A stretch of 64,000 bases of DNA from an uncultured Alphaproteobacteria bacterium. Lineage in GTDB: Bacteria; Pseudomonadota; Alphaproteobacteria; CAAHEQ01; UBA3637. The DNA lies in NCBI GenBank assembly GCA_944391585.1, contig CALXUD010000001.1, positions 6,385 to 70,384 of the forward strand, in the 5' to 3' direction. Made by a program: the position numbers and the translations under genes. This document shows, one piece after another, positions 8,206 through 58,131 of this stretch. Position 1 is the stretch's first letter. Each line of letters opens with the position of its first letter. The notes under the pieces were generated by a model. It had not been told where the DNA came from, did not search any database, and saw nothing but the letters and a program-made list of their open reading frames with translations.

Positions 8206-8242
8206 AACTATTTTTCGGTTTTTCTTCGTTTTAAATAAGCCT

Positions 8243-8270
8243 TGATTTTTTAAGGGTTTTGATGTATAAT
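8243..8270 (+). promoter_or_regulatory. Sigma70-like promoter for typA (TTGATT-N16-TATAAT)
   Basis: -35 ttgatt at 8243-8248 and -10 tataat at 8265-8270, 34 nt upstream of typA. Confidence 0.4.
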
Positions 8271-8303
8271 CCCGCCTAAATTTTTAGAAAAAGGAATTTC
8301 AGT

Positions 8304-38553: not shown

Positions 38554-38585
38554 GCCATGATAAAATGAAAAAACAGGAGGCTTTT

Positions 38586-40093: not shown

Positions 40094-40094
40094 A

Positions 40095-40748: not shown

Positions 40749-42763
40749 AACGGATTTTAAAATTAACGGCAGCTTTTTTTGTTTTGTCAATAGCTTTTCA
40801 AGCACAGGCTGTTTTGACCTTTGAAGCAAGCAAAACAACCTCTTTAACGACGCAAGCTAAAAATGTGGGTGATAAAGTGTCCAGTTATGTATATGAAACG
40901 GCGACCAGCGGATTGCAAGAAGGATCTTTATTGCTGGATAATACCATAAAATCCATTACGGATATTCCGGGTGATATTGTGGAACGGGCAACAGCAATTC
41001 CGGGGCAAGTTACAAAACAATTGACAAATATTCCGAATCAGGTTGCCAGTACACTGAATTCATCAATTAATCGCGTGACCAATATGCCTGGGCAAATGGT
41101 TAATCAGGCAACCGGCAGTGTTTCTTCTATGGCAAATCAAGTAACCAATATGCCGGGGAATACCGTTAATCAGATAACAAGCAGTGTAAATAGTTCGGTT
41201 AATCAGGTAACGAGTGCGCCGGGGAATTTTATGTCGCAAACAAATAGTATGATCAGCAGCACGGCAAATCAAACAATGAATATGCCGGGGAATGTTATTA
41301 ATCAAAGTGTTAGTAGCGTAAACAGTTCTTTAACTCAACTGGGAAATGCCCCGGGAAATGCCGTGAATCAAGCGGTTAGTGGTGTGAATAATGCATTTAG
41401 TTCTGCTACGAATTTACCGGGTAGTTTGACCAATTCTTTGAATTCAGGGATTTCCGGTTCGTTGTCTGAAATCAATAGTATGCCGACAACGGCGGTTAAT
41501 AAGTTGATGGATGGAAACATTTCAACAATGAATCCGTTGGAAAATATAGAATCCAGATTAACCTCATCGGGATTAAATATGAAAAATCAGGTAACCAGTT
41601 TGCCGGATCGGATGACATCCAGTTTAAATAATGCGGTTAGCGGTTTTACAAATTTGCCGGATAATTTACAATCCTCTGGCGATCGTCTTATTTCAAATAT
41701 TACGAGCACTCCGGATAACTTTGCGCGTCAAGGAGAAAATATCTTAAATAATATTACGAATACGCCGGATCGGATTACCTCTTCGGGTGAAAGTATGTTG
41801 AACAACATTACAAGTTCTCCGGATCGCTTGGCTTCTCAAGGGGAGAGTATTTTAAATAATGTAACCAGTACGCCGGATCGCTTATTAAGTCAGGGGCAAG
41901 GCACGATTACGAGTTTGCAAAATATGCCGGGCCAAACATTTTCTCAAATTACGGGAATGCCGGATTCTATTATGAATCAGACTGTGGGATCACTTGAAAA
42001 TACATTCAGTATGAATAATTTAATGGGTGGCTCCTTTTCCAATGCTTTTGGCGGATTAAATATGAACAATGTAGACAGTTATCCGACTCAGGCTTTTTCT
42101 TATATCCAAAATAATGCTACATCCAAAGCAAATTCATTGGCATCCAACAGTTTATCAAAATTTAAAAATTTGGGGAAAGAACAAGCTACAGCGGCGGCAG
42201 GAGCGGCAATCGGGGCTGTATGGAACAAAACAGCGGATTTAATAAATGGCTCAGATTCTGAGCCCGCTCAAAGTGCATCGCAAGGGAAAACGGAAACGGG
42301 TTCAGTTGTTGCACAGACATCCCAAGAGGCTGAACAAGCAGTTGCACAGGCACAAGCTGTTGCGGCAGAACAAGAAAAGTTAAACAAACTGAAAGAAGAG
42401 GTGCGACAAAATTTCTTTTTTGACGGGGAACCGACAACAGAAGAAAGAGAAGCGTTGTTAGCTACTCGGTCAGATAATTTTTCGGATATTGTGGCTAAAT
42501 CGGCTACAATGGCAGAAGGTATGCGGGAAAGTATTGTATCGGATGCGGCAACAACAACGGCAACTCCTATCAGTGGCGCCAGCGTTAAAGAAGATATCAA
42601 TATGAATACTGAAATTATGAAAAAATTAGCGCGTCAGTTGGTGGCTGAAATAGCCGTTCAAAATCAACTGTTTGAATTGGAAGTCGCCGGTGTCATGCAA
42701 TCATTGGATGTAAAACGGCTAGAAATGCCAACTTTACAGACGGAAATAGAAACGGGGGCTTAA
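40745..42763 (+). CDS. Secreted Ser/Asn/Thr-rich tandem-repeat protein (672 aa)
   Basis: Signal peptide (LSIAFQAQA). About seven 22-aa repeats 'TNMPGxxVNQxxSSVNSxxNQV' then about seven 18-aa repeats 'TSTPDRLxSQGESILNNI'. C-terminal coiled coil. Confidence 0.65.
   Translation: MKRILKLTAAFFVLSIAFQAQAVLTFEASKTTSLTTQAKNVGDKVSSYVYETATSGLQEGSLLLDNTIKSITDIPGDIVERATAIPGQVTKQLTNIPNQVASTLNSSINRVTNMPGQMVNQATGSVSSMANQVTNMPGNTVNQITSSVNSSVNQVTSAPGNFMSQTNSMISSTANQTMNMPGNVINQSVSSVNSSLTQLGNAPGNAVNQAVSGVNNAFSSATNLPGSLTNSLNSGISGSLSEINSMPTTAVNKLMDGNISTMNPLENIESRLTSSGLNMKNQVTSLPDRMTSSLNNAVSGFTNLPDNLQSSGDRLISNITSTPDNFARQGENILNNITNTPDRITSSGESMLNNITSSPDRLASQGESILNNVTSTPDRLLSQGQGTITSLQNMPGQTFSQITGMPDSIMNQTVGSLENTFSMNNLMGGSFSNAFGGLNMNNVDSYPTQAFSYIQNNATSKANSLASNSLSKFKNLGKEQATAAAGAAIGAVWNKTADLINGSDSEPAQSASQGKTETGSVVAQTSQEAEQAVAQAQAVAAEQEKLNKLKEEVRQNFFFDGEPTTEEREALLATRSDNFSDIVAKSATMAEGMRESIVSDAATTTATPISGASVKEDINMNTEIMKKLARQLVAEIAVQNQLFELEVAGVMQSLDVKRLEMPTLQTEIETGA
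40955..41995 (+). repeat. In-frame tandem coding repeats (periods 66 and 54 nt) inside the 672-aa secreted protein
   Basis: Recurring aatatgccggg.../acgccggatcg... units directly visible in the DNA. Confidence 0.6.
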
Positions 42764-43573
42764 ATGAAAAAGATATTTTTCAAAATAGTCATGGTGGTTG
42801 GATTGTTAGGCTTTTCTTGGAAAGCGGATGCATGTTTATGCGGCCCCAATACGTGTCCGGCTTGTTGGGATCAAATTATTGAAGGCTTTCCGGTTGAAGA
42901 TCCGACTTCATTAGCTCAGCAGGGGGCAAAGTTGGGAAATGATGTGTCTTCGGCTGTTGCATCCGAAGTGCAAGTGCAGGTAAAACAAAAAATCAATAAT
43001 GCAAAATCTTCTGTGGGAACTGATTTATCTTCTTATATGGTGCCGGACACCTCTTTAAATCAAGCATTCAATACGGGAGAAACATTTACGGCAAATTTAT
43101 CCAGTGATTTGTTGCCTCAATCTGCTTCTTTAACACCGGAAAAAGATGAAAATGCACAAATTGCAACGGCTAAAGGTGAGAACAGTATTGATGAGATTAT
43201 GATTCAGGTTGAAAAAAGTCAATTAAGCTCAAATGCGACATTAGCCGGAGAAATTTATGAAACCAATAAGCGGGCTTATATGCGTCAGGAAAATGTTGTG
43301 GATGCATATGCGAAGGTGTTGTTAATGCGGCAGAATTTGGATGAATTGGTGGAACAAATGGATAAAGAGATAGATAAAACGGCTCAACCGGGAGAAGATG
43401 TAAATGCCGCTTTGCGTTCCAATATGGCGGTTAATAGCATGGTTAGTCAGTTGCTTAGCTTATATCAACAAATCATAGCGGCACGGTTGCAATTTGCAGC
43501 ATTCCAAAAACTGGAGCAAGTAGGGACAATTCAACGTCCGGTTATTCAGTCGGCTTTGGTAGAAAGTAAATGA
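42764..43573 (+). CDS. Secreted protein with Cys-rich N-terminal motif (269 aa)
   Basis: Signal peptide, then 'CLCGPNTCPACW' immediately after the cleavage region. Helical C-terminus. Confidence 0.55.
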   Translation: MKKIFFKIVMVVGLLGFSWKADACLCGPNTCPACWDQIIEGFPVEDPTSLAQQGAKLGNDVSSAVASEVQVQVKQKINNAKSSVGTDLSSYMVPDTSLNQAFNTGETFTANLSSDLLPQSASLTPEKDENAQIATAKGENSIDEIMIQVEKSQLSSNATLAGEIYETNKRAYMRQENVVDAYAKVLLMRQNLDELVEQMDKEIDKTAQPGEDVNAALRSNMAVNSMVSQLLSLYQQIIAARLQFAAFQKLEQVGTIQRPVIQSALVESK

Positions 43574-43584
43574 GAGGAGAAAAA

Positions 43585-45747
43585 ATGAAAACGTTATCCA
43601 TTTCATTGATTGCCTTTTTGGCCGGATGTTTATATTGTTCCGCGCCGGAAGCTCAAGTGAGTTATTCAAAAGTGGAATTTGAGGCACCGAATTTGGTTCA
43701 AGTTGCTGAGCAAACGCGCTCAAATGTGACGGTGATGTGGGCAATGCGGGTTCATAATTTGATTTTTCAACTAAAAGAGTATCAGAAAGCGCGTGAACAA
43801 TTACTGGATGCGCAAGAACGATATGAGCTACAGCAACTACGTTATAAATCTATGATGTTATGTAATGTTAACAATTTAAAGCCGTATTTTAAAGATCCTC
43901 AAAGTGCTTGGTTAAAGGTGTTGGATAAATATGATCGGGATGAAAAAAAATTAGGAATTCAAATTAATACAACAGATGCATCATTAAGTGCTTCGGCTGA
44001 ATTGATTGCTAACACGCCGGGGTTAACTCCGTTATTGTCGTCCTCATCAGAGTCAGATGATTTATCTGAAACCTTTTTAATGTGGTCGTTAGGAAATGGG
44101 ATTTTACATGATGTTTATGCCAATCAGGATGATTGGGGAAATCGGGTGGATAAATCTTTCCCATTAACGGTGGATCAGCAATATATTTATGATGAGCAAG
44201 ATTGGTATGGCAAATATAAAAAAATCAATCAGGCAGCTTGTTGTTTAAATGATTGCGGTATTGGCTATAAGGGAGCACCGGATACCCGTGAAAAATTGTC
44301 TGATGGCACAACATATGATTATCATGGTGATTATAAATACCATGAAAACGGAAAAGTAAAAACAGCGCATGATACTTATATGGCCGCGATTAGAGCGGTT
44401 CATCGCAGAGGGTGTTCCAAACGTTTAACAACAGAAATGTTTACCGAGCCTAAACAGCCGCCACGCCCGTTACCGCCGGTTAATGAAACAATAGTGTTTG
44501 ATGCAGACTCTTATTCTCTTCAACGTCCCCCATTTTCAGAACAGCGCATTTATGAAGGTAATCAAATGAATTTAACGCAGAGTGCTTGGCCGGCTCCGTG
44601 GAAAACATTTATTGAATCAGATTTTAAAACCTATAATGCCAATGGGGCAATGCCCAGATATTTTAAATATAAATCAATTGTTCCGATTGATTTAGAAAGT
44701 CGGACGGCAGAACAATTACAGGCATTTTATGATGCTCAAAACAATCGCTTAAATGCATACCAGGTGTTGAAGAAAGAATTGGATGATGCTAAAAAGATTT
44801 TGGATACTTCCAAAGTTAATTACATTGAAGCAATGCAAAATTTAAGTGCCAGCGTTGCAGATGTGAATGCAGCTATTTCTGATGCGAATCAAAGCAGTTC
44901 TCAATTTCAAGTGTCTGTTTTGACATTGCCGGAAAATTTCAAATTGTTAGAGCAATTTGATTTAGATAATATCAGTACAGATTCGGATTTAGAAAAAACA
45001 CTGGATAAAATTTTGGTTCAAAATAAAAAAGTTTATTATCAAGAAACGCCGGAGAGTGATTTAAAAAGATGGCCGGATATGTTTAATGTTTTGCTAAATA
45101 GTACGCCTGCCGGTAATTTGGTTATTGAGCCTGATAGTGAGGGAATTGGGCGTGTTTATTTAAAACAAACACAAACAATGCCGCTACAAGATTTTGATTT
45201 ATTGACAGATGCCCAAGTCAGCAAAATCACGGATAATTTTAAACAAGTGAAAAAAGATTTCATCGCAAAAGCGTTGGGTGAATTGGCCGCAGAATTACGT
45301 CAGGAACAGGCAGCCTCTTCAGAAGTGCAAGCTATTAAACAAGCGGGAGATGCTGAATTAGCCGAAACAACAGATGTAAAATCTCAAAAAAGCCTCTTCC
45401 AACAAAGGTTGGAACAAATGGTTGCTAATTTGAATGGGATAAATACGGACAGTTTTGTTAATTCCGGTTTTACAAATCGGGAAGTATCGGATAGTTCGAT
45501 GTGGCCGGATGTGATGACGGATTCATCTAAAGAAAATTTGGCAACAGTTTTAGAAGCATTGCAAGCAGATGAAAACGCCGAATTGTTCTTCACGAACACA
45601 AATGCACGGCGTGCCAGTGATTTGAAAAAAGAAAATGCGGCTGTTCAAGCGTTAATTGATGAATGGGAATCTGAAATGAAATCAGTCACGGTTGAAGGAA
45701 CGGCTGCCATTGATGCTAATTGTTTAAATTTGGGGATTTATAAATGA
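43585..45747 (+). CDS. Large lipoprotein (~720 aa), T4SS-operon associated
   Basis: GAGGAG RBS. Lipobox MKTLSISLIAFLAGC. No NTP-binding motif. Coiled-coil segments. Its stop overlaps the virB8-like start. Confidence 0.6.
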   Translation: MKTLSISLIAFLAGCLYCSAPEAQVSYSKVEFEAPNLVQVAEQTRSNVTVMWAMRVHNLIFQLKEYQKAREQLLDAQERYELQQLRYKSMMLCNVNNLKPYFKDPQSAWLKVLDKYDRDEKKLGIQINTTDASLSASAELIANTPGLTPLLSSSSESDDLSETFLMWSLGNGILHDVYANQDDWGNRVDKSFPLTVDQQYIYDEQDWYGKYKKINQAACCLNDCGIGYKGAPDTREKLSDGTTYDYHGDYKYHENGKVKTAHDTYMAAIRAVHRRGCSKRLTTEMFTEPKQPPRPLPPVNETIVFDADSYSLQRPPFSEQRIYEGNQMNLTQSAWPAPWKTFIESDFKTYNANGAMPRYFKYKSIVPIDLESRTAEQLQAFYDAQNNRLNAYQVLKKELDDAKKILDTSKVNYIEAMQNLSASVADVNAAISDANQSSSQFQVSVLTLPENFKLLEQFDLDNISTDSDLEKTLDKILVQNKKVYYQETPESDLKRWPDMFNVLLNSTPAGNLVIEPDSEGIGRVYLKQTQTMPLQDFDLLTDAQVSKITDNFKQVKKDFIAKALGELAAELRQEQAASSEVQAIKQAGDAELAETTDVKSQKSLFQQRLEQMVANLNGINTDSFVNSGFTNREVSDSSMWPDVMTDSSKENLATVLEALQADENAELFFTNTNARRASDLKKENAAVQALIDEWESEMKSVTVEGTAAIDANCLNLGIYK

Positions 45748-46400
45748 AATTAAAAAGAACCATTTCGGATTTGCATCAACGTTCTGTGGCAAAAGGGGGA
45801 GCTTTTGTTGCCAAACTATGGATGGGGCTTGCGCTTTTGTCTATGATGTTAAACTTTTTCATTGTTTTAACATTATGGCAAATTTCGCCGAAATTAGAAA
45901 TCATTTCACAAATTGTTTTTCAAGACGCGTTGACTTCTCGTCAAGGTGTGATTGCTGAACCATTTGATGCCAATATGATGGATAAAGATAAAATCAACGA
46001 AATGCTCATTCGGTATTATTTATCTAATCGCTACAGTGTTTTCCCTGATTATGATGAAATGGCGCATCGATGGGGCCCTAACGGAATTTTAGATCGTTTA
46101 TCGACAGATAACGTGCATTATGCTTTTGCACAAGATGCTTATGGACAATTAGAAGAAATCGATAAAAATCCGCAAACCAGCAGTGTCAGTATTCGCAAGA
46201 TGTCACGGCTGGATAATACATGGACAATCGAACTGGAAGTTTTTACGTTTGATCAGCGGACAGGACAGGTATCCAGTCGCGTTTATGATGTTGTTTTGGA
46301 AACAGCCGTTGATCCGGCTTATGCCTTTTTTAACATTGATTTCATTAATCCGTATGGATTACAGATTGTTGATTTCAGACAAACGCAAAAAAAACAATAA
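45744..46400 (+). CDS. VirB8/DotI-like T4SS inner-membrane protein, paralogue 1
   Basis: Cytoplasmic N-terminus, single TM (LWMGLALLSMMLNFFIVLTLW). Periplasmic domain with 'MLIRYYLSNRYSV' (VirB8 'RYV..RE.Y'-like) and C-terminal 'NPYGLQIVDFR' (VirB8 NPxG motif). Confidence 0.65.
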   Translation: MKLKRTISDLHQRSVAKGGAFVAKLWMGLALLSMMLNFFIVLTLWQISPKLEIISQIVFQDALTSRQGVIAEPFDANMMDKDKINEMLIRYYLSNRYSVFPDYDEMAHRWGPNGILDRLSTDNVHYAFAQDAYGQLEEIDKNPQTSSVSIRKMSRLDNTWTIELEVFTFDQRTGQVSSRVYDVVLETAVDPAYAFFNIDFINPYGLQIVDFRQTQKKQ

Positions 46401-46480: not shown

Positions 46481-46657
46481 ATGAAAAAATATCTATTTTT
46501 ATTAGGAATTGCCGGCATTTTTGCATTGGTTGCTTGCGGATCCGTTTATGAAAAAGAAACGGTGGGGATTGGTCCGGATTATTCCGAATTGAAAAAATCA
46601 CCGTGTGCTTGTGTGAAATTGGATAATGTACCGGAATTACCCGAATGGTTTTCCTAA
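46481..46657 (+). CDS. Small VirB7-like lipoprotein (58 aa); not in the supplied ORF track
   Basis: AGAAAGGG RBS. MKKYLFLLGIAGIFALVAC has a lipobox (LVAC). ~40-aa mature peptide. It sits between the two virB8-like genes, as rvhB7 does in Rickettsiales. Confidence 0.5.
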   Translation: MKKYLFLLGIAGIFALVACGSVYEKETVGIGPDYSELKKSPCACVKLDNVPELPEWFS

Positions 46658-46674: not shown

Positions 46675-47361
46675 ATGGTTCAAGAACGCATCGAACACTC
46701 ATCATCTGATTTATCGGAAGAGGCATTAAAAGAACGTCGCTATTTTTGGATGGCGCGCGCTTTTGCTGTTGTGTGTGTGGTGTCGTTTATTACGAACATT
46801 ATTTTAATTGTCGGTCTATTTTCGTTGGTTCCAATTGTGCGCGTGCAGCCATTTTATTTGAATTTACAGGATAAAAATGAACAAGTTATTTCCATTCGTC
46901 GGTCAGATAATTTAAATTTGGATACGGCGTTATTAACTGAGTCATTAATTCGTCAGTATCTGTTGGCGCGCTTAACGATTGGTTCGGATCCCAAAGAGTT
47001 GGAAACAAGATGGGGACTGGATGGTGCTGTGAATTGGACAAGTGAATCTTCCGTTTTCGGGATGTTTGCTGAAACGGCTCAAGCATTGATTGCGCAGGCT
47101 AAAAACGAAGGATTAACACGACGCGTGGACATTTTATCTGTTGTCAAATTACGGGAGGTAGATGCGTCTCGAGATGTGTGGCAGGCGGAATTGAATCTCG
47201 TGGATATGAAACGCGGTTCAACCGAACCATTAACAACGCGTTGGCGTATTGTGATGGAGGTTGAATATCGTCCTAATCGTGAGGGGTTGAAGTGGTCGCA
47301 ACGATTAAAAAATCCGATAGGTTTTACGGTAACGCGGTTTGGTATGCAACAAATAGATTAA
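46675..47361 (+). CDS. VirB8/DotI-like T4SS inner-membrane protein, paralogue 2
   Basis: TM helix (VVCVVSFITNIILIVGLFSLV), 'LIRQYLLARLTIG', C-terminal 'NPIGFTVTRFG' NPxG motif. Confidence 0.65.
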   Translation: MVQERIEHSSSDLSEEALKERRYFWMARAFAVVCVVSFITNIILIVGLFSLVPIVRVQPFYLNLQDKNEQVISIRRSDNLNLDTALLTESLIRQYLLARLTIGSDPKELETRWGLDGAVNWTSESSVFGMFAETAQALIAQAKNEGLTRRVDILSVVKLREVDASRDVWQAELNLVDMKRGSTEPLTTRWRIVMEVEYRPNREGLKWSQRLKNPIGFTVTRFGMQQID

Positions 47362-47439: not shown

Positions 47440-49155
47440 ATGAGTCAAACAAAAATTAAAAAATATGGTTGGGTAAGTGCAATTGCTTTTTGTGCTTTAG
47501 TTGCAATGCCGGTGGTTGCACAACAAGATTTACCGACAAATACGGAAGCCGGTCAATTGGCGGATGCAATTGCTCAGACGGCCGGTGAATACGATGCAAT
47601 GAATTTGAGTTATATTCAGTCGTTTGGTATGCAGCAAAAAGCGTGGAACGATCCGTTGTCTCATTTAGGCGAAGGTCAAACAAAACCGGGGTATTCAAAA
47701 TATGTATGGTCTCCTGATGTTGTGTTGCCGGTGCGTTTGCGCGAAGGGATGATGACATTGATTAACCTGCCAACTTGGGAATTAATTGAAAAGGTTCATA
47801 TTGGATCTCCGGAATCTTTTGGTGGTGAAATTGCCGCGCCGAATTCCTTGTTGGTCTATGCTGATCCGAATTACATTGGTGTTGACTCAAATATGATTAT
47901 CTTTGGTCGCTCCGGTAATCGGTATGTGTTTTATTTACGTAGTGAAACGTATAATACCGATAAAATTACGCACTCTGTTGTTGATGTGTTAACGGGGCCA
48001 AAGTTTACCCCCCAATCGGCAGGAGGAAATTTGCCGGATTTTAATGGCGCCACAGCAACGGCCGCAGGGGCTGGGGCGGGGAATGCTTCCAGCGGCGCAC
48101 CCGGTTGGGCAGGGAAAGGTTCTTCTCTAACGCCGGGAGGTTCTCAAAATCCACAGGTTGGGTTGAATACGGCTTCGACAGGACCGAAAGATTGGCTACA
48201 ATCTATTCCGGTTGACCCGGAAAAATTCCGTTTTGATGTGGAGATGTATTTGCCAAATCCGGCCGACGTAGATATTGCGCCGGAACGGGTATGGCGTGAT
48301 GATATCTTTACTTATATTGATTTAGGGCCGAAAGCGTTGACAATGGTTCAGCGACCGATTGTAAACATGATTGTTCAAGAATCTGAAGTGCCGGTTGGGT
48401 TTAGAACACGGGGCGAATATTCTCGATTAATCGTGGTTGAAGGTGTGGGTGATATGGTGTTGCGTAATGGCCGCAAAATTGTTTGTTTGAAATTGCGGCG
48501 TGATCCGGCTATGGGGTTGGAAAATACGGATTACAGCGGCTCTGAAAAAGCGTTGAACAATTGGAATGCGCCGGCTTTACCGGATTATGAAACAAGTGGT
48601 AATTTATCCAAAGAAGGAAATATAAGCACTTCTCAAGCTAGCGCACAAGGAACGGATATGAATCAATTTAATGCGCAGGCACAAATTAATCAAGATTTAG
48701 CGGATTTAAATGCCCAATTAGGCTTGCAAAGTGGTCGTTTATATTCCAGCTCGGTTTATACACAAAAAATGGCCCCGTTACCGCCGATTCCGGCTTCAGT
48801 AAAACATGCTCCAACGGCATCGGCCGGGATTGTGGATGTGATTGAGCAAGTTTCGTCAAATTCTCGGCGTCAAATCCCGTCTGCTGTGACAGATGAAGAA
48901 ACAATTTCCATTGAATTGGCTTCTAATCCGGAAATTTCGGAATTGGAAAGCGTTTGGGAAAAGGTAATCGCTGATAATCAGGATGTGTTAGCGGGATATG
49001 AGCCGTATTACTCCATTGATGCAACGGCAGATGGGGATGTACGTGAATTATTCCGATTGCGCGTGGGGCCGATGACGGATGTGAAGTCCGCAGATGCTGT
49101 TTGTCAACGGTTAGGGCGGCGCGGATATTCTTGCTCGGTTATTCGGGTGCAATAA
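47440..49155 (+). CDS. VirB9/CagX/DotH-family T4SS outer-membrane core protein, extended to 571 aa with a Gly-rich insert and a C-terminal SPOR domain
   Basis: Signal peptide. N-terminal VirB9 domain ('YVWSPDVVLPVRLREGMMTLINLPTWELIEKVHIGSPESF...NSLLVYADPNYIGVDSNMIIFGRSGNRYVFYLRSE'). C-terminal VirB9 domain ('DDIFTYIDLGPK...RPIVNMIV...GEYSRLIVVEGVGDMVLRNGRKIVCLKLRR'). Terminal 'LFRLRVGPMTDVKSADAVCQRLGRRGYSCSVIRV' is SPOR-like. Confidence 0.75.
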   Translation: MSQTKIKKYGWVSAIAFCALVAMPVVAQQDLPTNTEAGQLADAIAQTAGEYDAMNLSYIQSFGMQQKAWNDPLSHLGEGQTKPGYSKYVWSPDVVLPVRLREGMMTLINLPTWELIEKVHIGSPESFGGEIAAPNSLLVYADPNYIGVDSNMIIFGRSGNRYVFYLRSETYNTDKITHSVVDVLTGPKFTPQSAGGNLPDFNGATATAAGAGAGNASSGAPGWAGKGSSLTPGGSQNPQVGLNTASTGPKDWLQSIPVDPEKFRFDVEMYLPNPADVDIAPERVWRDDIFTYIDLGPKALTMVQRPIVNMIVQESEVPVGFRTRGEYSRLIVVEGVGDMVLRNGRKIVCLKLRRDPAMGLENTDYSGSEKALNNWNAPALPDYETSGNLSKEGNISTSQASAQGTDMNQFNAQAQINQDLADLNAQLGLQSGRLYSSSVYTQKMAPLPPIPASVKHAPTASAGIVDVIEQVSSNSRRQIPSAVTDEETISIELASNPEISELESVWEKVIADNQDVLAGYEPYYSIDATADGDVRELFRLRVGPMTDVKSADAVCQRLGRRGYSCSVIRVQ

Positions 49156-49200
49156 AAAAAGTTTGTATTGAATAGTTTGTTAGAAGATAAGGCAAATAAA

Positions 49201-52200
49201 ATGGCAGAAAATAGAAATTATACCAGTATGTCCGAACAATATGTCAAAAAGAGTAATCGTCGATTACTCATTTTTGGCATTGTGCTTTTTTTGATTTTTG
49301 CATTGGCATTATTTGCCTTATCCGGTCGCAATCAACAAACGGAAGATTTAACGCCGATTGATTATAACACGGACGATTTTGAACGATTAAACAATCCAGA
49401 TGCTTCTTTAACAACGTTTACGCGCGGTAGTGCAACTTTGAAAGTAACACCGGATGTCGTCAATATGGATAATGTCGTATTAGGTTCGAATGTAGAATCA
49501 GTTATCACGTTAACAGCAAACAATGCGCCGATTTTCTTTTTGGGAGCGGAGTTAGCCGAACAACAACAAGATGGGTTTAAATTAGACACCAATTGTGTCG
49601 TAGATAAAGAAATGGCTGTGGGGGAAACATGCAATATCAAAGTATTATGGAATCCGGTTTCTTTATTACAATTGCAAAATAATTTAACGATTACATGGCG
49701 AGAAAATAACCCAACCGTGTTCAGAAATGAAAAAACAGTGGTTCAAATTCGTGCCAATTCAACGGATTCAAAAGATTGTGTGATTTGTGAAAATGTGTCG
49801 GCAGAAGCTAATAAAAAACCGCGGATGGCGGCAGGATTGGATGGTACTTTATATGAAGTTGATGATGATGGATATGTTACGATTGACGGTAAGCGCTATA
49901 AGGTGACGGAAAACGGGTTAATTGTTGATGAAAATGGTAATGTTTTGGGAATTGTTCAACCGGAGCGGTTGCCTTTGGGATTGGATCACAAAGTTTTGGG
50001 AACAATTTCGCAAACGCAGGACGTGATTGATGCCTCCGGCAACAAATTGGGGCGTTTATTGGGCGATGGCACGATTGTGGATCCGAATTTAACGGTCATT
50101 GGTGCGGCTGTACCGGTAGTGTCTGTTATGGATGATAATGGAACAATTGTTGGAAAGTTGTTGGCAGATGGATCTGTGGTTAATGCGGCTAACTCCACGA
50201 TCGGACGGCCGTTGGTAGATGGCTCTGTTATTGATTTACAAGGCAATCATTTAGGATACTTACGCCCATGGGGATTGGTTGTTGATTTTGGTGGATTTGT
50301 TTTGGGGGGCATTACACCAGATGGTGTTGTTGTGAATTCAAAACAACAAAGAGTGGCTGTTGTAAAACCAAATGGATTGGCATTGAATGCATCTAATGAA
50401 TTAGTGGGTGGTGTGGTGCCAACGGGCGTGGCTGTGGGTGCCAGTTGTCAGGCGGTTGGTTCTGTGCAGTTAAATGGACAAGTCAAAGATTCATTTGAAC
50501 AGGTTGTTGGTCGGACATTGCCGGATGGTAGTGTGGTCGATGAACGCGGAGATGAATTGGGCGCTGTTGTAGCTCAAGGATTAGTGATTAACGAAAAAGG
50601 AGTTATTTTAGGGTTTGTTAATTCCGAAGGAAAAGCAGTTGATGCTAAAGGCTCAATGATCGGTTGTGTGAATCCGGATGGTTCCGTGATGGCTGGAAAA
50701 CGCTCGGTTGGTGCAGTGATGGCTAAAGGAACGGTTGTCGGATATGGATGTGAAGTGATTGGTTCTGTTTATCCGAACGGTATTGTGGTAAATGATAAAC
50801 AAGAAGGGGTTGCCCGCGTGTTGGCAGATAAGTATGTTAAAAATGCCAACAACCGAATTGTTGGGGTTGTGATTCCGCGTGGGACGGCAATTGGTGAAGG
50901 GTGTCGTTTGTTGGGATTGATTAATTTAAACGGTCGTGTTGTTTCCACAGAAGGTCAGGATGTTGGCTGTGTGAACATTGAGTTAAATGTATTGGATAAT
51001 GCTGGAAAAGTCATTGGAGCAGTCAATTACAAAGGACAGGTAACAGATGACAATGGAAAAATTATTGGTCGAATTCGGATGGATGGAAAAGTCATTGACA
51101 CCAAAGGGGTTGTCATTGGTTGTGTGAATCCGGACGGTTCGGTTGTGGATTTAAAAGGCGCTCCGTTGGGACAAGTTGTCGGCGTCAGCAATGGAACATC
51201 TCGTCAATCCGGTGTGGTGTTAGATGCAGCCGGCAATCCAACCGGATACACAATCGTCGGAAATCAAGTTTATGACCAAAATGGCAACTTGGTTGGCGAA
51301 TTGCAAGAAAACGGTTGGGTCGTTGATGCTAATGGTCAAATTATCGGCGTGGTCCCGCCTGATGGGGTTATTTATTCTCCAGACGGATTGATTTTAGGTC
51401 GTTATTCTCGTCAAACAGGGGTTGCTGTGGATTTGGAAGGAAATCGTTTCGCGCGAATTTTACCGGATATGACGGCTGTCAGCGGTGAAACATCTGACAT
51501 TATTGGGGCTTTAATTGCAGATAAAACAAGCTTCATGAAGTTGGATGGTTCTTATTTAGGAACAATGCGTATTGACGGTATGATGTTAGATGCCTCCAAT
51601 AATTTAATCGGCGCTATTCGGGCAGACGGAACGGTGGTGGATAAAACAGGTCAAATCATCGGGACGCGCATTTTAACAGGTTCCGTGTTAGGTGTTTTGG
51701 GGGGTGTTATTGGAACAGCTGAGGCGGATGGTTCAGTTATATCCATGGCGAAAACAAAAATCGGCAAAATGTTAGGAAATGGTTTGGCTGTTTCTGAAGA
51801 CGGAAAAGTTATTGGTGCTCTTTTCCCTGAAATTTCAGTTGCCATTGGATCGGATGGAACGATTTTGGGCGGTTTAACAACACAAGGAAAAGTGATTGAT
51901 AAAAATGCACGTGTGATTGGAACAGTTTCGCCGTTTGGTTTTATTTTTGATAGTGCGGGAAAATTAACAGGTCGTTTAGTGCGGGTTGGGGCTTTTGTAG
52001 ATGCTCAAAACCAAACAATCGGCTGGCTTTCCTTTAAAGGAGAGTTAGAAGGAAAAGATCAACGTTCTCGGGCTAAAGTATTGAGCAACGGAGTTGCAAT
52101 TGACAACAATAATTTTGTGATTGGTCAACTTGTGCCGCGGGGTGTTGCGGTAGATGAAAACGGCAATTTTGTCGGCTCTGTTTCCGTGAATGGATTGGTT

Positions 52201-55200
52201 TTAGGAAAATCAACAGAAGTGTTGGGATCCACAAAAGCATCTCCTTATTTCTATGATGCCAGCGGTACATTGGCCGGAAGTATCATACATCCGGGATTGG
52301 CACTCTCTTTGAATGGGGCGGTTTTGGGTTGGACAAGTTATACGGGACAAGTCATCAATGCAAAAGGAGAAAATGTCGGATTTATCGGTTTGGATGGTCG
52401 CGTCTTTAACAGCTCTAAACAATTGATTGGTACCTTTGTGGCTTTTGACACATTAACAGGTGGCGATGAGCAAGATAGCTTTGGGGTTTTGGGGGCTGAT
52501 GGAAACATTGTGGATGGAAAAGGGCAAAAAATCGGCTCAGTTCTTTCCACACAATTTGCCGGTCAAGAAGGAAAAATCACAACGAGATTATTCCGTTCAT
52601 CTGATTTAATTACTAACTTTGTGAATGGTCAGTTGATGGGGCAGATTTTGCCGGGTGGCAGTGTTTTATATGCAAATGATGATAAAATTTTGGGAACAAT
52701 TGGCACTAATGGATTAGCGGCAAATTTAACGAAAAAGGTGATGGGTGGTGTGGCCCCGGTTGGTGTGCCGCAACGGATTGGCTTATCAGTAATGGGGCAA
52801 TCACTTGTTTCGGGGGGTATTCTCAATAATGGGGCTTTTGTGGCTCAAGCAATGCCGAATACGGCCGCCTATGACTCCAAAGCGCAAGTGGTTGGTAATG
52901 TGGCTGTACCGGATCTCTTTATCGGTCGGGAAGGGGCGGTTATCGGATCCAGTTCCGGAACAGCAACAATCATTTCAAGAGATGGAAAAAAGTTGGCATC
53001 TTATATGCCGTTTGGCTCTGCTTTGACAACGGATAATTTGTGGGCCGGGGGGGTAATGCCTTTGGGAACGGTTGTGAATGATGATGCGTATACCATTGGT
53101 GTAGTGGCTTCTGACGGGGCTGTTGTGGATCGGATGGATGACGTGATTGGTCGTGTGATGACAGACGGAATTGTTGCAGGTATTTCTGAACGCTCCAGTT
53201 ATGCAACAATGCCTTATATCGGTGGTTTAGTTAAACAAGGATTGCCGGTTGGTTTTAAAGACGGAATCTTAGGACGCACAACTATTGCCGGTGATGTGAT
53301 TGATGCTGCGGATAAAAAAGTTTATCGCTTATTAGATGATGGGACTGTTTTGGGTGGTGATATGCCGTTAGCCGGGGTAGTTGTTTCTATGAATCCGGTG
53401 ATTGCGCACAACGGGAATGTATTAGGTGTGCCATCGGGTGATGGAACTGTTATTTCTGAAACAGGTGAGGAAGTTGGTACGATTGCTACTAATGGAACGG
53501 CTAAAAAAGGTCGGATGAAAATCTTGGGTGCTGTGGTGCCGGAAAGATTGGTTGTGAATGATTGTAAGGTCGTTGGACAAACGGCTTTCAATGGTCAGGT
53601 CATCAATGGTCGCGGTGATGTTGTGGGACGGATTTTGGTAGATAAGTGGGCCCAAAATATGCGTGGCGAAAGAATTGGCCGGATTTCTCGCAATGGGCTT
53701 GTTTTATCCCCAACGGGAGATTATTTGGGACGGACAATGCCGGATTCAACGGTTGTCGACTTAAAAGGAATTAACATGGGATGTGCCCGAAATGACGGTT
53801 CTGTTGTAGATAATGCGGGTAATGTGATTGGGGCTGTTGTTGAGCGGGGCGCCATTTTAGATGAGACGGGCAATTTAATCGGCCGAGTAAAACATGACGG
53901 TTCGGTTGTGGACAGAGATGGTAATGTGATTGGTAAAGTGTTGGGAGATGGAAAAGGCACCGTTGTGGATTTGGATGATAACGTAATTGGTCGAGTTGTT
54001 TCGCCGGATGAAGAATTGTTATTCAACGAAAATGGTGTTGTTGAAGGAACAATCAGTCGTGGTGGTGAGGTAAAAGACGCCGAAGGCAACACATTATTTA
54101 CGGTTTTACCAAATGAAGACATCGTGGATAAAAATGGGGAAATAATTGGTAAATTATCTGAAAACGGAGATTTTTCAGATGGTATTTTGCGCGATAAAGA
54201 CGGCAATATTATCGGAATGATTTCCGGATGCGATGTAACAGGACCAAAAGGGACAAAAATCGGATCTATTATGCCGGACGGATCCATTATGGATTTGAAT
54301 GGCGGTGTATTTGCGGTTATTGGGTCTGACAGTAAATTGTATGATGCTAAAGGAAATGAAATGGGAACGTTGTCCGGCATTGACGTCAATTTAGATAAAT
54401 GTGGCGTAAAACTGGATAAAGAGACCCTCCGTAGCGGGAAAGGCGCTGCCGGTTCAACAGGTGTATCCGGTCGGCGTATCTTTATCGGTAATAAAGTTTA
54501 TGATGTTTCCGAAGCCGGATCTATCATTGATTCCGAAGGGACAATCATTGGTTATATGGGTGAAGATGGTCGGCCGTATGGTTTGAACAATAAGCCGTTC
54601 AGTGTTGGTTCAGATGGAAGTGTTTCTACTCGGACTCGGCCGAATTTAGATAAACAGCTGACAGTAAATGAGGAACAATTAACACAAATGCAGCAATTGT
54701 TGGCACAACGCCGAGCCAGTATGAAAGCCGCTCGCGGAACAGCTATTCAACCGAGTGGGCGAATTTTGGCTAAAGCCAAGAAGAAACAAGACGAAGATTG
54801 GGGAGAACCCAGAATCGTATCATCATGGCCGGTAGATATGTCGCGTATGATTTTAAAAGATAAGGCAATTCCGGCAGTGTTGGTACATTCTCTAGATTCT
54901 CGATTCTCGGATGTCCCGGCAACAGCCATTGTGGAACGTCATATTTACTCTGAATCCGGACGTAATATCATTATTCCAGCCGGTAGTCGTTTGATTGGCA
55001 GAATGTCCAGTAGTGATGGAGATGGGACAGTGGCAAAAGTCAATATTTCTTGGGAGCGACTTATTCGTCCTGATGGCGGGGCCTTTAAGTTCTCAGCAAC
55101 CTCCGGCGATGCTCAAGGTCGTGGTGGTGTAGCCGCTTATTTGGATAATGAGCTGATGAAAAAATACGGTCAACCGGTTATGGTTTCTGCGGTACGTTCT

Positions 55201-55764
55201 ATGATCACCTATTTGATCCAAACAGATGGAACAACGACAACGAATGCCGATTCCGGAACGGTTGCACAATCCGGCAGAGATCAAGCGGCTGCTGATGCAC
55301 GTCAAACATTTATGACTGACATGCAACAGGTCTTTGATGATATTTTGACTGAAGCAACGGGGGTTCCGCCGGTTTTGTTTGTCCCATCAGGAACGCGGTT
55401 AACGGTTTTTGCAAACGAGGATCTATGGTTGCGTGCGCCGGTAGAAGATGAGAAAGAATATGAAGAGCAATTTGGAACTGATACTAAACAAGCTCAAACG
55501 GCGAAAACAGATTCTTGGGTGAATAAACATCCTGTTCCTCAAGGGGCAGTTCAACCGCCGGTGGAACAATACTATGAACCCAATGAACCGGTTTATGTGG
55601 ATGAAACATATTTAGAAGAACCATTATATGATGGAGAAAATGTTGATATGGAGCAAGAGGTTGTTTCTGAAACATCTTCAAACACAGAGGAAACGAATCC
55701 GTTGGAGAATAGAGTGGTAGAACCTGTTTTGCCAAAAAATAATAGTATGGAACAATTGTTTTAG
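49201..55764 (+). CDS. Giant VirB10/TrbI-family T4SS protein (~2190 aa) with N-terminal TM anchor, ~1600-aa central repeat region and C-terminal VirB10 domain (CagY/DotG-like architecture)
   Basis: ATG at 49201 after a TAAGG RBS; the track start at 49168 is a TTG. TM helix (LLIFGIVLFLIFALALFALSG). C-terminal 'VLVHSLDSRFSDVPATAIVERHIYSESGRNIIIPAGSRLIGRMSSS...VNISWERLIRPDGGAFKFSATSGDAQGRGGVAAYLDNELMKKYG' matches the conserved VirB10/TrbI C-terminal domain. Confidence 0.8.
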   Translation: MAENRNYTSMSEQYVKKSNRRLLIFGIVLFLIFALALFALSGRNQQTEDLTPIDYNTDDFERLNNPDASLTTFTRGSATLKVTPDVVNMDNVVLGSNVESVITLTANNAPIFFLGAELAEQQQDGFKLDTNCVVDKEMAVGETCNIKVLWNPVSLLQLQNNLTITWRENNPTVFRNEKTVVQIRANSTDSKDCVICENVSAEANKKPRMAAGLDGTLYEVDDDGYVTIDGKRYKVTENGLIVDENGNVLGIVQPERLPLGLDHKVLGTISQTQDVIDASGNKLGRLLGDGTIVDPNLTVIGAAVPVVSVMDDNGTIVGKLLADGSVVNAANSTIGRPLVDGSVIDLQGNHLGYLRPWGLVVDFGGFVLGGITPDGVVVNSKQQRVAVVKPNGLALNASNELVGGVVPTGVAVGASCQAVGSVQLNGQVKDSFEQVVGRTLPDGSVVDERGDELGAVVAQGLVINEKGVILGFVNSEGKAVDAKGSMIGCVNPDGSVMAGKRSVGAVMAKGTVVGYGCEVIGSVYPNGIVVNDKQEGVARVLADKYVKNANNRIVGVVIPRGTAIGEGCRLLGLINLNGRVVSTEGQDVGCVNIELNVLDNAGKVIGAVNYKGQVTDDNGKIIGRIRMDGKVIDTKGVVIGCVNPDGSVVDLKGAPLGQVVGVSNGTSRQSGVVLDAAGNPTGYTIVGNQVYDQNGNLVGELQENGWVVDANGQIIGVVPPDGVIYSPDGLILGRYSRQTGVAVDLEGNRFARILPDMTAVSGETSDIIGALIADKTSFMKLDGSYLGTMRIDGMMLDASNNLIGAIRADGTVVDKTGQIIGTRILTGSVLGVLGGVIGTAEADGSVISMAKTKIGKMLGNGLAVSEDGKVIGALFPEISVAIGSDGTILGGLTTQGKVIDKNARVIGTVSPFGFIFDSAGKLTGRLVRVGAFVDAQNQTIGWLSFKGELEGKDQRSRAKVLSNGVAIDNNNFVIGQLVPRGVAVDENGNFVGSVSVNGLVLGKSTEVLGSTKASPYFYDASGTLAGSIIHPGLALSLNGAVLGWTSYTGQVINAKGENVGFIGLDGRVFNSSKQLIGTFVAFDTLTGGDEQDSFGVLGADGNIVDGKGQKIGSVLSTQFAGQEGKITTRLFRSSDLITNFVNGQLMGQILPGGSVLYANDDKILGTIGTNGLAANLTKKVMGGVAPVGVPQRIGLSVMGQSLVSGGILNNGAFVAQAMPNTAAYDSKAQVVGNVAVPDLFIGREGAVIGSSSGTATIISRDGKKLASYMPFGSALTTDNLWAGGVMPLGTVVNDDAYTIGVVASDGAVVDRMDDVIGRVMTDGIVAGISERSSYATMPYIGGLVKQGLPVGFKDGILGRTTIAGDVIDAADKKVYRLLDDGTVLGGDMPLAGVVVSMNPVIAHNGNVLGVPSGDGTVISETGEEVGTIATNGTAKKGRMKILGAVVPERLVVNDCKVVGQTAFNGQVINGRGDVVGRILVDKWAQNMRGERIGRISRNGLVLSPTGDYLGRTMPDSTVVDLKGINMGCARNDGSVVDNAGNVIGAVVERGAILDETGNLIGRVKHDGSVVDRDGNVIGKVLGDGKGTVVDLDDNVIGRVVSPDEELLFNENGVVEGTISRGGEVKDAEGNTLFTVLPNEDIVDKNGEIIGKLSENGDFSDGILRDKDGNIIGMISGCDVTGPKGTKIGSIMPDGSIMDLNGGVFAVIGSDSKLYDAKGNEMGTLSGIDVNLDKCGVKLDKETLRSGKGAAGSTGVSGRRIFIGNKVYDVSEAGSIIDSEGTIIGYMGEDGRPYGLNNKPFSVGSDGSVSTRTRPNLDKQLTVNEEQLTQMQQLLAQRRASMKAARGTAIQPSGRILAKAKKKQDEDWGEPRIVSSWPVDMSRMILKDKAIPAVLVHSLDSRFSDVPATAIVERHIYSESGRNIIIPAGSRLIGRMSSSDGDGTVAKVNISWERLIRPDGGAFKFSATSGDAQGRGGVAAYLDNELMKKYGQPVMVSAVRSMITYLIQTDGTTTTNADSGTVAQSGRDQAAADARQTFMTDMQQVFDDILTEATGVPPVLFVPSGTRLTVFANEDLWLRAPVEDEKEYEEQFGTDTKQAQTAKTDSWVNKHPVPQGAVQPPVEQYYEPNEPVYVDETYLEEPLYDGENVDMEQEVVSETSSNTEETNPLENRVVEPVLPKNNSMEQLF
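49850..54650 (+). repeat. Array of about 80 degenerate ~19-20-aa coding repeats, consensus 'DGSVVDxxGxxIGxV', within the VirB10 homologue
   Basis: Periodic G/V/D/I pattern through ~1600 aa (e.g. 'LADGSVVNAANSTIGRPLVDGSVIDLQGNHLGYL', 'PDGSVVDERGDELGAVVAQGLVINEKGVILGFV'). Units are diverged at the DNA level. Confidence 0.75.
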
Positions 55765-55779: not shown

Positions 55780-56766
55780 ATGGCTTTAGATAATGAAGAA
55801 ACATATAAGGTATTGAATTCTGCTCTACGGCCGCTTTCTTATTGGTATAGTCAAGAAAACATTGAGGAAATTGCGGTAAATAATCCGGGAGGCATTTGGT
55901 TGCGTATGCGGGGAAAACATGCTTATCCGTGGCATTATTTTGAAGATCCGAAATTAACGCGCGAATATTTAAATGATATTTTATATATTATTTCTAATAC
56001 ATATGATTATTCCTTTGATCCGTTGGGAGGGACGCCGGTTGTATATGCAACATTACCGGGAGGTCATCGGTTTACGGGAATCAGTGGTCGGAATGTGATG
56101 TATGATAACAATGATTTAACCGGCGGTGTGGCGATGACACTGCGTGTTTATTCAGAAGACATCGGCATTGGAATGGAAGATTTTAGATTGGCTAAAGGGG
56201 AACGGTTACGGCCATTGAATAAGTTGACCAATGTGGAAGATCCGGATGATCCCTATGAGCGGCTATTGTTGTCTATTAAACGGGGGGATCATATCCTCAT
56301 CAGTGGAGCAACGGCAACGGGTAAAACAACTTTCTTGAACAATATGATTCGTTTATTAGATGAGCATAAGCGCATTTTGACAATTGAAGATACACGCGAA
56401 TTGATTGTGCCACAGAAAAATCGGGTGCATATTGTGATTCCGCGTACAGAATCCACCAACGCATTTGATTATAAACGTGTAATAGACTTGGCTGTTCGGT
56501 TTACTCCGGATTGCATTATTGGTGGAGAAATTTCTACCTCTAATGCCGGTGCTTTATGGGAATTAATGGGGTCCGGACATGATAACTGTTTTGCAACGAT
56601 TCATGCGGCCAGCCCGGATGATGCATATAAAGCATTTGTGAATCGGATTGTGCACTCTTATCCCAATACGGATCGCCAAAAAACATTGCAAGAAATGAAA
56701 GATCTCTTACGTGTAGTGCAAATTAATCGAGACGGCAACATTCGCGCTGTTACGGAAATCACATAA
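55780..56766 (+). CDS. virB11: VirB11-family T4SS ATPase
   Basis: Walker A 'ISGATATGKTTFLN', 'RILTIEDTRELIV' Asp box, 'TSNAGALWELMGSGHDNCFATIHAASP' His box. 328 aa. Confidence 0.85.
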   Translation: MALDNEETYKVLNSALRPLSYWYSQENIEEIAVNNPGGIWLRMRGKHAYPWHYFEDPKLTREYLNDILYIISNTYDYSFDPLGGTPVVYATLPGGHRFTGISGRNVMYDNNDLTGGVAMTLRVYSEDIGIGMEDFRLAKGERLRPLNKLTNVEDPDDPYERLLLSIKRGDHILISGATATGKTTFLNNMIRLLDEHKRILTIEDTRELIVPQKNRVHIVIPRTESTNAFDYKRVIDLAVRFTPDCIIGGEISTSNAGALWELMGSGHDNCFATIHAASPDDAYKAFVNRIVHSYPNTDRQKTLQEMKDLLRVVQINRDGNIRAVTEIT

Positions 56767-57534: not shown

Positions 57535-58131
57535 ATGTTTATTCGCTCTCAATTAGGACGTTCTATGGTTGAAATGCTGGGTGTTTTAGCGATTATCGGA
57601 GTTTTATCTGTAGGAGGAATTTCTGGATATCGATATGCCATGACGAAACAAAAAGCCAATGATTTCATGGCAGATTTCCAAATCATTATGTTAGACTCAT
57701 CCAATTGGGCCAGAACATTGCCGGGGCGCAGCGTTCCAAGCGGAGCAGATACATATTTTTGCGGAAAGGGAACTTCTTTCAAAATCGGTTATAACACAAA
57801 CACCTTTATGGCCGGTGATGTTCTTTTTAATTCTAGTGATGGAAATGGTATTGGGGAACATGATGGCAAGTTGGATAACATCTATGCGGATGATTATATT
57901 CAATGTAAAGCCTATGGTTCGAAAAACCCGAATGTGGATTGGAACTTCTTAAATGAATTATCCATTGAAGGAACTCCCATTGTTGAAATTGAAATTTTTA
58001 CAAGCAATGGCGATATGTATGCCATGTATAATTATGAAAATTATAAAAACAAATATATGCCGGACAGTTTTGATGATATCAAAATTGACTATATTGATTT
58101 TGAATTTAATCGCGATTTATCCATAGAATAA
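57535..58131 (+). CDS. Prepilin-type N-terminal cleavage/methylation-domain protein (type IV pilin/pseudopilin-like), 198 aa
   Basis: 'MFIRSQLG|RSMVEMLGVLAIIGVLSVGGISGY': short leader ending in Gly, Glu at +5, hydrophobic helix. Unusual Arg at +1. Confidence 0.55.
   Translation: MFIRSQLGRSMVEMLGVLAIIGVLSVGGISGYRYAMTKQKANDFMADFQIIMLDSSNWARTLPGRSVPSGADTYFCGKGTSFKIGYNTNTFMAGDVLFNSSDGNGIGEHDGKLDNIYADDYIQCKAYGSKNPNVDWNFLNELSIEGTPIVEIEIFTSNGDMYAMYNYENYKNKYMPDSFDDIKIDYIDFEFNRDLSIE

Follow-up and report, generated by a model that had tools for sequence, protein, structure and literature searches.

What fills a secretion-system subunit that usually counts about 400–500 residues and here has 2,187, and what might the added chain do? 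The question is raised by one gene in a 64,000-nucleotide stretch of DNA (hereafter the window) from an uncultured Alphaproteobacteria bacterium (GenBank assembly GCA_944391585.1, contig CALXUD010000001.1, positions 6,385 to 70,384). The gene, at 49201..55764 on the + strand, encodes a homologue of VirB10, the subunit of type IV secretion systems (T4SSs) that spans both membranes, at about five times the canonical length. T4SS reviews name only CagY and DotG as repeat-bearing VirB10s; the roles of their repeat-filled middles are unsettled, and those regions are not confidently modelled. The protein analysed here is a genuine VirB10 whose very large repeat module evolved independently of these two and has a different structure, and it is conserved throughout an uncultured clade. 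In full-text literature searches, we found no description of a VirB10 with DUF3659 or Bflower domains, nor of a VirB10 in gut Alphaproteobacteria.

Architecture of the giant VirB10

A single frame is open on the + strand from a TTG at 49168 to 55764 in the open reading frame (ORF) list of the window, and the ATG at 49201 is the start that agrees with the N termini of all orthologues (M-x-E/D-N-R...SSSEQY-KKSNR). Translation from this ATG gives 2,187 residues and a stop codon, a product identical to the public database protein P0304 and matched by the Pfam families TrbI, Bflower_2, Bflower and DUF3659. Along the chain, a transmembrane anchor is followed by an immunoglobulin (Ig)-like domain, about 1,600 residues of repeats, the TrbI/VirB10 domain and an acidic, proline-rich tail.

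The identification as VirB10 rests first on the C-terminal module. Pfam TrbI (PF03743) matches residues 1884–2077 (54850..55431, + strand) with an E-value of 1.5e-33 over profile positions 2–188 of 188, and NCBIfam also assigns the protein to VirB10/ComB10/TrbI. Against the NCBIfam equivalog T4SS_VirB10 (NF038091), the score was 103.3 bits, below the curated cut-off of 220 bits; judged by sequence score, the giant VirB10 is a divergent member of the family and no NF038091 equivalog. A phmmer search of Protein Data Bank (PDB) chains with the C-terminal module retrieved ComB10 (5e-17), then Xanthomonas citri VirB10 (6gyb), CagY, TrwE and TraF, and Foldseek returned the same solved VirB10 homologues at a TMt of about 0.5. 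Predicted structure supports the domain as well: in the second of the two AlphaFold2 (AF2) models described below, a helix precedes the TrbI barrel, and two antenna helices, at residues ~1983–2009 and 2025–2054 (model residues 944–970 and 986–1015), project from between barrel strands, with a local predicted local distance difference test (pLDDT) score of only 40–77. The antenna span between the flanking strands is ~94 residues here, compared with ~57 quoted as typical. The gene also lies with virB8, virB9 and virB11, and so the VirB10 homology proposed in the first-pass annotation is upheld by family, structure and neighbourhood.

The N terminus is likewise that of a VirB10, with a short cytoplasmic segment (residues 1–21, net charge +3, KKSNRR) and a single inner-membrane helix at residues ~22–40 (together 49201..49320, + strand). 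Hydropathy peaks at 3.18 over residues 22–40 with positive charge preceding, AF2 places a helix at residues 11–39, and the motif is found in the 16 orthologues read from genomic loci. The AF2 models are two overlapping monomers (residues 1–1150 and 1040–2187) built from an alignment of 33 diverse orthologues (34 sequences); the first reached a pLDDT of 85.3 and a predicted template modelling score (pTM) of 0.77, and the second 75.0 and 0.61. In the model, the helix is followed by a disordered linker and then by a periplasmic Ig-like (ASH/PapD/MSP-like) beta-sandwich at residues ~78–190 (49432..49770, + strand) with invariant cysteines C132 and C144. An N-terminal domain of about 170 residues had been proposed; the domain exists, with these narrower limits. 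The loop between it and the first petals carries an invariant STDSKDCVICE motif with a CxxC (residues 187–197; 49759..49791, + strand), found in the 87- and 34-sequence alignments, and the pLDDT falls below 50 around it (residues 192–204). The motif might bind a metal, act in redox chemistry or form disulfides between subunits. The extended proline-rich periplasmic linker typical of VirB10 is absent: the region from the transmembrane anchor to TrbI contains 2.9% proline and consists of beta-hairpins instead.

The chain ends in a disordered acidic, proline-rich tail at residues 2078–2187 (55432..55761, + strand), recognized by composition and by a pLDDT of about 30. It comprises 110 residues, where about 100 had been estimated, with 23.6% aspartate plus glutamate, 10% proline and a net charge of -19. 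The tail evolves fast (0.275 identity), yet its last residues, PVLPK...LF-COOH, are conserved. The ...LF ending is present in nearly all petal-bearing VirB10 relatives and missing from petal-less ones, a pattern that hints at a motif for docking or targeting at the C terminus.

Ahead of the barrel, after the Ig-like domain, come ~88 beta-hairpin 'petals' of 17 residues (residues 209–1810; 49825..54630, + strand), an array of the beta-flower/DUF3659 family recognized by autocorrelation, Pfam, AF2 strands and conservation. Residue-identity autocorrelation over residues 231–1830 peaked at lag 17 (0.19 compared with 0.08 expected; z = 16.8 from 200 shuffles), with harmonics at 34, 51 and up to 119. 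The internal periodicity noted on first reading is thus significant, and because the maximum falls at lag 17, the unit is 17 residues, repeated ~88 times, rather than 19–20 residues repeated about 80 times. The petal consensus is D-G-s-V-V-D-x-x-G-x-v-I-G-x-V-l-P. Pfam Bflower_2 matched 13 stretches (E-value 5.5e-81; 268 bits compared with a cut-off of 38), Bflower scored 63 bits (cut-off 25) and DUF3659 55 bits (cut-off 24.8), and so repeats first taken to be of an unknown type belong to named families. AF2 predicted 177 strands between residues 209 and 1810, spaced alternately by 8 and 9 residues, which gives the count of ~88 hairpins. Within each petal, strands of 3 and then 5 residues flank the D-x-x-G tip, and a connector of 4 residues leads on to the next petal. 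The 17-residue phase is kept across dozens of petals without domain linkers and with only single-residue slips and about five interruptions. Interrupted stretches of the array lie near residues 660–684, 1085–1100, 1189–1212, 1324–1365, 1650–1661 and 1725–1758.

The beta-flower fold was found in the AlphaFold database as shallow barrels of hairpin petals with a [DNEQ]xxG tip and 4-, 5- or 6-fold symmetry (Durairaj et al. 2023, PMC10584680), without a PDB relative or known function (PMC10584680). Members of PF21784, PF21785, PF21786 and DUF3659 (clan CL0395 for PF21785 and PF21784) share the petal and tip with the array and match it strongly by hidden Markov model; here, petal positions 6–9 read D/N-x-x-G and lie between two AF2 strands. 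The described beta-flowers are closed barrels of ~100 residues (8, 10 or 12 strands), some of them lipoproteins, whereas here ~88 petals run on unlinked and are fused to a T4SS subunit. The fold is thereby extended from small closed domains to a continuous array of ~1,600 residues. RHS_repeat (PF05593), carried by some orthologues, had no match to the window protein at E ≤ 0.01, and for an Rhs/YD-shell fold Teneurin gave the sole long Foldseek alignment, at a TM-score of only 0.05–0.09. An RTX-like calcium-binding beta-roll, suggested by the glycine- and aspartate-rich period of ~17–18 residues, was set aside since its motif differs and Pfam gave no match of this kind at E ≤ 0.01.

Set beside canonical VirB10/TrbI proteins (Agrobacterium tumefaciens VirB10, pKM101 TraF, R388 TrwE, X. 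citri VirB10 and Helicobacter pylori ComB10), the giant shares the inner-membrane anchor, TrbI barrel, antenna and position between virB9 and virB11; it differs in that the Ig-like domain and ~88 hairpins replace the proline-rich linker and the 110-residue acidic ...LF tail is added. H. pylori CagY resembles it in size (a VirB10 of ~1,900–2,200 residues), in having a large repeat region ahead of its VirB10 domain and in belonging to an 'expanded' machine. The CagY repeats are alpha-helical modules, as relayed in PMC9371333 from its reference 80, and the direct repeats in the DNA that encodes them recombine; here the units are 17-residue beta-hairpins of fixed total length with no DNA repeat, and no sequence relation to CagY extends beyond the TrbI domain. 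The best analogy in function is the Legionella T4BSS protein DotG, likewise a VirB10 homologue whose middle is filled with repeats. DotG repeats are 10-residue [KR]xAG[FY] units (bioRxiv 10.1101/2023.03.22.533729), and the protein, of ~1,050 residues, varies in repeat number and works in a Dot/Icm context, whereas the giant VirB10 has a different fold, a near-fixed number of units and a context like that of the rickettsial rvh system. Because the repeats are unrelated to those of both CagY and DotG, as first proposed, the expansion is independent. The family thus represents a third independent solution, and one that is easier to study given its confident structure prediction, fixed length and cysteine-pair markers.

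Family distribution, length and conservation

The giant VirB10 belongs to a large conserved family from well over a hundred lineages of uncultured Alphaproteobacteria, already present in public databases under automatic labels only, and so it is not unique. We scanned loci in one genome per species; the loci are titled uncultured Alphaproteobacteria and nearly all are flagged as metagenome-assembled genomes (MAGs). Seventeen loci were found, of which 16 contained complete ORFs of 2,171–2,455 residues, read from DNA. Where titles state a source, it is the gut of animals or humans (caecum of roe deer, rectum of buffalo, and Hadza and other human-gut sets). The 16 MAG orthologues are collinear with the window protein, most of them end to end, at 35–53% identity. 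In protein databases, a search with residues 1–1800 yielded more than 120 clusters of Bflower plus TrbI proteins; the 119 clusters above 2,000 residues span 2,063–2,609 residues with a median of 2,202. Public labels, where there are any, read 'TrbI/VirB10 family protein', 'DUF3659 domain-containing protein' or 'hypothetical'. One giant orthologue (P0074) was deposited under 'Lactobacillales bacterium', which is probably a binning error.

A search with the C-terminal module had offered a different picture, in which only short relatives of 226–668 residues exist and the giant form is unique. We rejected it because most of these entries begin inside the repeat without a transmembrane anchor and the DNA shows either full ORFs of 2,171–2,455 residues or gaps and contig edges. 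Public calls of giant VirB10s are often broken (for example, at positions 4380–10000 of locus L001, and in P0005, P0019 and others), leaving spurious 'VirB10' entries of 300–700 residues; the causes are a 100-N scaffold gap, contig edges and antisense ORFs within the repeat region. In an exhaustive HMMER search with the C-terminal module, petal-bearing VirB10s were the nearest relatives, at scores of roughly at least 170 bits. They fall into at least two complete length classes, of ~1,400–1,650 and ~1,900–2,600 residues. Remoter relatives of 500–690 residues have the anchor and no petals, and the N-terminal domain is present at least in P0039 and P0048.

Conservation was scored region by region, as identity to the window residue among 86 orthologues. 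Identity was 0.41–0.54 in four repeat sub-regions, 0.53 in the N-terminal domain and 0.62 in TrbI. Each petal is under purifying selection. Position by position, conservation of the array ranged over 0.28–0.69, best at residues 252–760 and 1272–1628 and least at residues 1017–1220 (0.28–0.34), and the invariant array columns of the 87- and 34-sequence alignments are almost all glycine, plus cysteine. Indels are limited to a few sites (after residues 1660, 1670, 1704 and 1745) and to the tail. These figures bear on whether the array might be a neutral or runaway expansion that serves no particular function. Slippage can lengthen repeat proteins, and the poorly conserved centre of the array would be in keeping with that; against it stand a positional orthologue for each petal across more than 100 lineages, the invariant glycine and cysteine positions, covarying cysteine pairs, the conserved length and a 6.5-kb frame that is intact in all 16 complete MAG loci. 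We therefore consider neutral expansion hardly credible.

The repeats are also stable at the level of DNA and of populations. Tandem Repeats Finder (TRF) detected no period-51 tandem repeat in the DNA. In the 90% cluster that contains the window protein, all nine complete variants listed are exactly 2,187 residues long; in a second 90% cluster of 141 members, 14 of the 15 members listed have 2,201 residues and one has 2,202. Together with the collinearity of orthologues, this supports the early claim that the units are diverged at the DNA level and are no recombinational cassette. Substitutions within the cluster are few, with 28 of the 30 variable sites in repeats. Seven of the sites (1480, 1487, 1491, 1495, 1500, 1505 and 1513) form a dense patch of within-species polymorphism at residues 1480–1513 (53638..53739), common to several database variants, which may be a short tract of recombination or a surface that diversifies locally.

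This pattern is relevant to a CagY-like role, in which the repeats would be a surface-exposed, host-interacting and recombinationally variable domain used for secretion tuning or immune evasion. The architecture resembles that of CagY, the organisms with a stated source are gut-associated, and within-species substitutions concentrate in the repeats, including the patch at 1480–1513. However, there are no DNA direct repeats, cluster lengths are identical bar one of the 15 members listed in the second cluster, orthologues are collinear petal by petal, and the array is all-beta rather than alpha-helical. It also lies between an inner-membrane anchor and an outer-membrane domain, a topology with which the earlier suggestion of a projecting surface appendage conflicts. 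Fixed length within populations and the lack of a DNA-level tandem repeat rule out recombinational variation of the CagY kind, and we regard a CagY-like role as a whole as very improbable.

Proposed petal stacking and role of the array

Cysteines give an indication of how the petals may pack. Three pairs of cysteines lie 73 residues apart in the first half of the chain (C416–C489, C517–C590 and C568–C641; 50446..51126, + strand) and are putative staples between petals i and i+4; a fourth pair with the same separation, C1455–C1528 (53563..53784, + strand), is found in 87 of 87 sequences. Members of a pair are kept or lost together: across the 87 sequences, C416 and C489 are both present in 82, both missing in 5 and single in none, the corresponding counts for C517 and C590 are 79, 8 and 0, and the C568–C641 and C1455–C1528 pairs are invariant. 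Among the 119 giants, 73 is by far the commonest cysteine–cysteine separation. It equals four petals plus five residues; in each pair, one cysteine sits just past a hairpin tip and its partner near the base of the long strand four petals on.

This joint gain and loss argues that the paired cysteines are disulfide partners, which fits a periplasmic location, and we infer that the disulfides join petal i to petal i+4. From the tip and base placement of the paired cysteines, petal i+4 would be expected to sit on petal i. Because pairs 517–590 and 568–641 interleave, residues 517–641 are unlikely to form separate closed five-petal rings. We thus favour a compact continuous stack with 3–5 petals per turn over a string of closed five-petal rings, a model that fits both the interleaving and the high pTM. 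The rod-like all-beta architecture predicted in the first-pass annotation is accordingly plausible, given a pTM of 0.77 over 1,150 residues and the covarying i/i+4 pairs; such a rod might be tens of nanometres long. A pooled mutual-information test for contacts between petals i and i+k did not discriminate, with a shuffle null that ignores positional conservation across orthologues.

Our preferred reading, for and against which we see the case as evenly balanced, is that the protein serves as VirB10 in an rvh-like (P-type) T4SS that is chromosomal and vertically inherited, and that its repeat array acts as a rigid periplasmic scaffold or collar; rod geometry, stoichiometry and the collar or scaffold role are what we infer from the features above. 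The N-terminal helix would anchor the protein in the inner membrane, and the TrbI barrel and antenna would reach the outer membrane, with the Ig-like domain and ~88 petals taking the place of the proline-rich linker in the periplasm. Packed as a continuous stack and locked by i/i+4 disulfides, the petals would form a rigid segmented rod rather than a flexible tether. About 14 copies of VirB10, a number assumed from other systems, could then surround the periplasmic channel as a palisade, collar or cage, which by our own arithmetic would amount to roughly 2.4 MDa (14 × 1,600 residues) and would hold the inner-membrane complex and the outer-membrane core in a set geometry. For the repeat regions of DotG and CagY, the proposed role is a periplasmic collar that has no counterpart in minimal systems (bioRxiv 10.1101/2023.03.22.533729; PMC9371333), and the petals may do the same job by means of an unrelated fold.

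Several points weigh against the scaffold. Only a single chain was modelled, and subunits might pack differently in the assembled machine; the disulfide bonds are read from covariation alone; the window contains no genes for VirB4, VirB6, VirD4 or a pilin; and by our own rough geometric estimate, a straight rod of ~22 turns could exceed a normal periplasm. An overlong rod would need to be tilted, kinked at the roughly five interruptions or laid around the circumference.

Length invites another explanation, a close variant of the scaffold, in which the rod is a ruler or spring that sets or changes the distance between inner and outer membranes or transmits an ATP-dependent conformational signal in the manner of TonB. 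Lineages that have diverged to 26–29% identity retain a total length near 2,200 residues, there is a second discrete class at ~1,400–1,650 residues, and length is invariant within populations. Agrobacterium VirB10 is an energy sensor that bridges both membranes, which counts in favour of force transmission. Expansion of the DotG repeat region during export has been raised as a possibility in the Dot/Icm paper (bioRxiv 10.1101/2023.03.22.533729). By contrast, the putative disulfide staples and the position-specific conservation favour rigidity over extensibility, and we consider the ruler or spring unlikely. Collar and ruler hypotheses can be tested by comparison here because the family offers over 100 diverged lineages and two or more length classes.

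In a bolder version of the scaffold, which we consider less likely than not, the giant VirB10s would mark an undescribed 'expanded' T4SS class, widespread among uncultured gut-associated Alphaproteobacteria, in which VirB10 alone builds a multi-megadalton cage of ~14 disulfide-stapled rods. These would be the first beta-flower petals to form rods and the third independent repeat-based VirB10 collar, with the ~1,500- and ~2,200-residue classes acting as a ruler.

Neighbouring genes and other envelope genes

The genes around the giant VirB10 are those of a T4SS, all on the + strand. A divergent VirB8 paralogue resembling RvhB8-II (45744..46400) has a weak full-length Pfam VirB8 match and 21% identity to the next VirB8, and it is kept in 15 loci. 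It is followed by a VirB7-like lipoprotein of 58 residues (46481..46657), recognized by its size, LVAC lipobox and position; it had no family match, and a gene is called at the same position in two other loci (L020, 58 residues; L001, 59 residues). Next come VirB8 (46675..47361; Pfam VirB8 E-value 5.5e-15) and a VirB9/CagX homologue of 571 residues (47440..49155; Pfam CagX E-value 7e-13), full-length homologues of which are 56–62% identical in 16 of the MAG loci. A VirB11 ATPase (55780..56766; NCBIfam VirB11 E-value 1.3e-39, Pfam T2SSE) lies downstream of the giant, and directly after it is an Asp/Glu racemase gene, with no virD4 there. Around these lie housekeeping genes of the chromosome (dnaK, bipA, dnaX, ffh, trmD, folD, ksgA, surA and lptD), and so the T4SS is not on a plasmid or an integrative and conjugative element.

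In Rickettsia typhi, the rvh islet reads rvhB8-II / rvhB7-rvhB8-I-rvhB9-II-rvhB10-rvhB11, and its VirB8 paralogues are ~18% identical (PMC4676284). Several virB6 genes and duplicated virB4 and virB9 genes of rvh systems stand at other sites. The window shares the order B8-II, B7, B8-I, B9, B10, B11, a similarly divergent pair of VirB8 paralogues and a chromosomal location apart from the other T4SS genes. It differs in that virD4 follows virB11 in rvh where the racemase gene stands here, and in a SPOR domain on VirB9. The rickettsial VirB10 is enlarged in its antenna projection, whereas the enlargement here lies between the transmembrane anchor and the barrel. The giant VirB10 family suggests that rvh-like secretion is a conserved trait of a poorly known group of gut-associated Alphaproteobacteria.

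The SPOR peptidoglycan-binding domain occupies the C terminus of VirB9 (residues 523–569; E-value 1e-4), and we know of no SPOR domain on other VirB9s. It raises the possibility that the machine is anchored to the cell envelope, with the VirB10 hairpins binding peptidoglycan or another periplasmic polymer and fixing the complex in the sacculus. Annotations of some beta-flower relatives point the same way, as does the lack of a VirB1-type transglycosylase gene among those seen in the window. The array is acidic, however, with a net charge of -38, and the loops rich in Arg/Lys and Phe that are known from the founding beta-flower are missing from it; ~88 units on each of 14 chains would be far above need, and there were no cell-wall-binding structural analogues. 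Anchoring by the petals is therefore improbable in our judgement, and a periplasmic scaffold remains the reading that we prefer.

Directly upstream of the T4SS genes are six consecutive + strand ORFs (38538–45747; ~217–725 residues), each with an N-terminal signal peptide. They have no Pfam or NCBIfam match and are not mutual paralogues, and a homologue of the last one lies upstream of the divergent VirB8 in three other loci (L004, L005 and L009); the six may be unrecognized T4SS components or substrates. On the other side of the system, an ORF of 198 residues (57535–58131, + strand) has an N terminus (…GRSMVEMLGVLAIIGVLSVG…) that resembles a type IV prepilin leader plus hydrophobic helix, and it had no Pfam match at E ≤ 0.01.

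Elsewhere in the window, a single ORF of 1,080 residues (32199–35441, + strand) joins an LptF/G-type inner-membrane lipopolysaccharide permease (residues 6–356) in frame with LptD (residues ~405–1015). At the junction, what seem to be LptD's own start codon and a cleavable signal peptide (KGKK-MRWPWRKIATVFFILLGAAQTAQA|A) are retained. Both domains occur together in more than 120 database clusters, mostly at 1,062–1,096 residues and in one case at 1,007, and the few named records are Alphaproteobacteria or Pseudomonadota MAGs; in the literature, we found no description of such an in-frame ORF. The ORF might yield a covalent Lpt bridge from the inner to the outer membrane, a polyprotein that is processed, or two separate proteins from one frame. 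We rejected the idea that the ORF is a sign of a narrow periplasm, since the junction retains an apparent start codon and cleavable signal peptide for LptD. At the window's start, a YhdP/AsmA-like envelope-spanning protein of 1,046 residues (23–3163, + strand) adjoins a protein of 1,382 residues with three glycosyltransferase domains, GT2, GT8 and GT4 (3166–7314, - strand).

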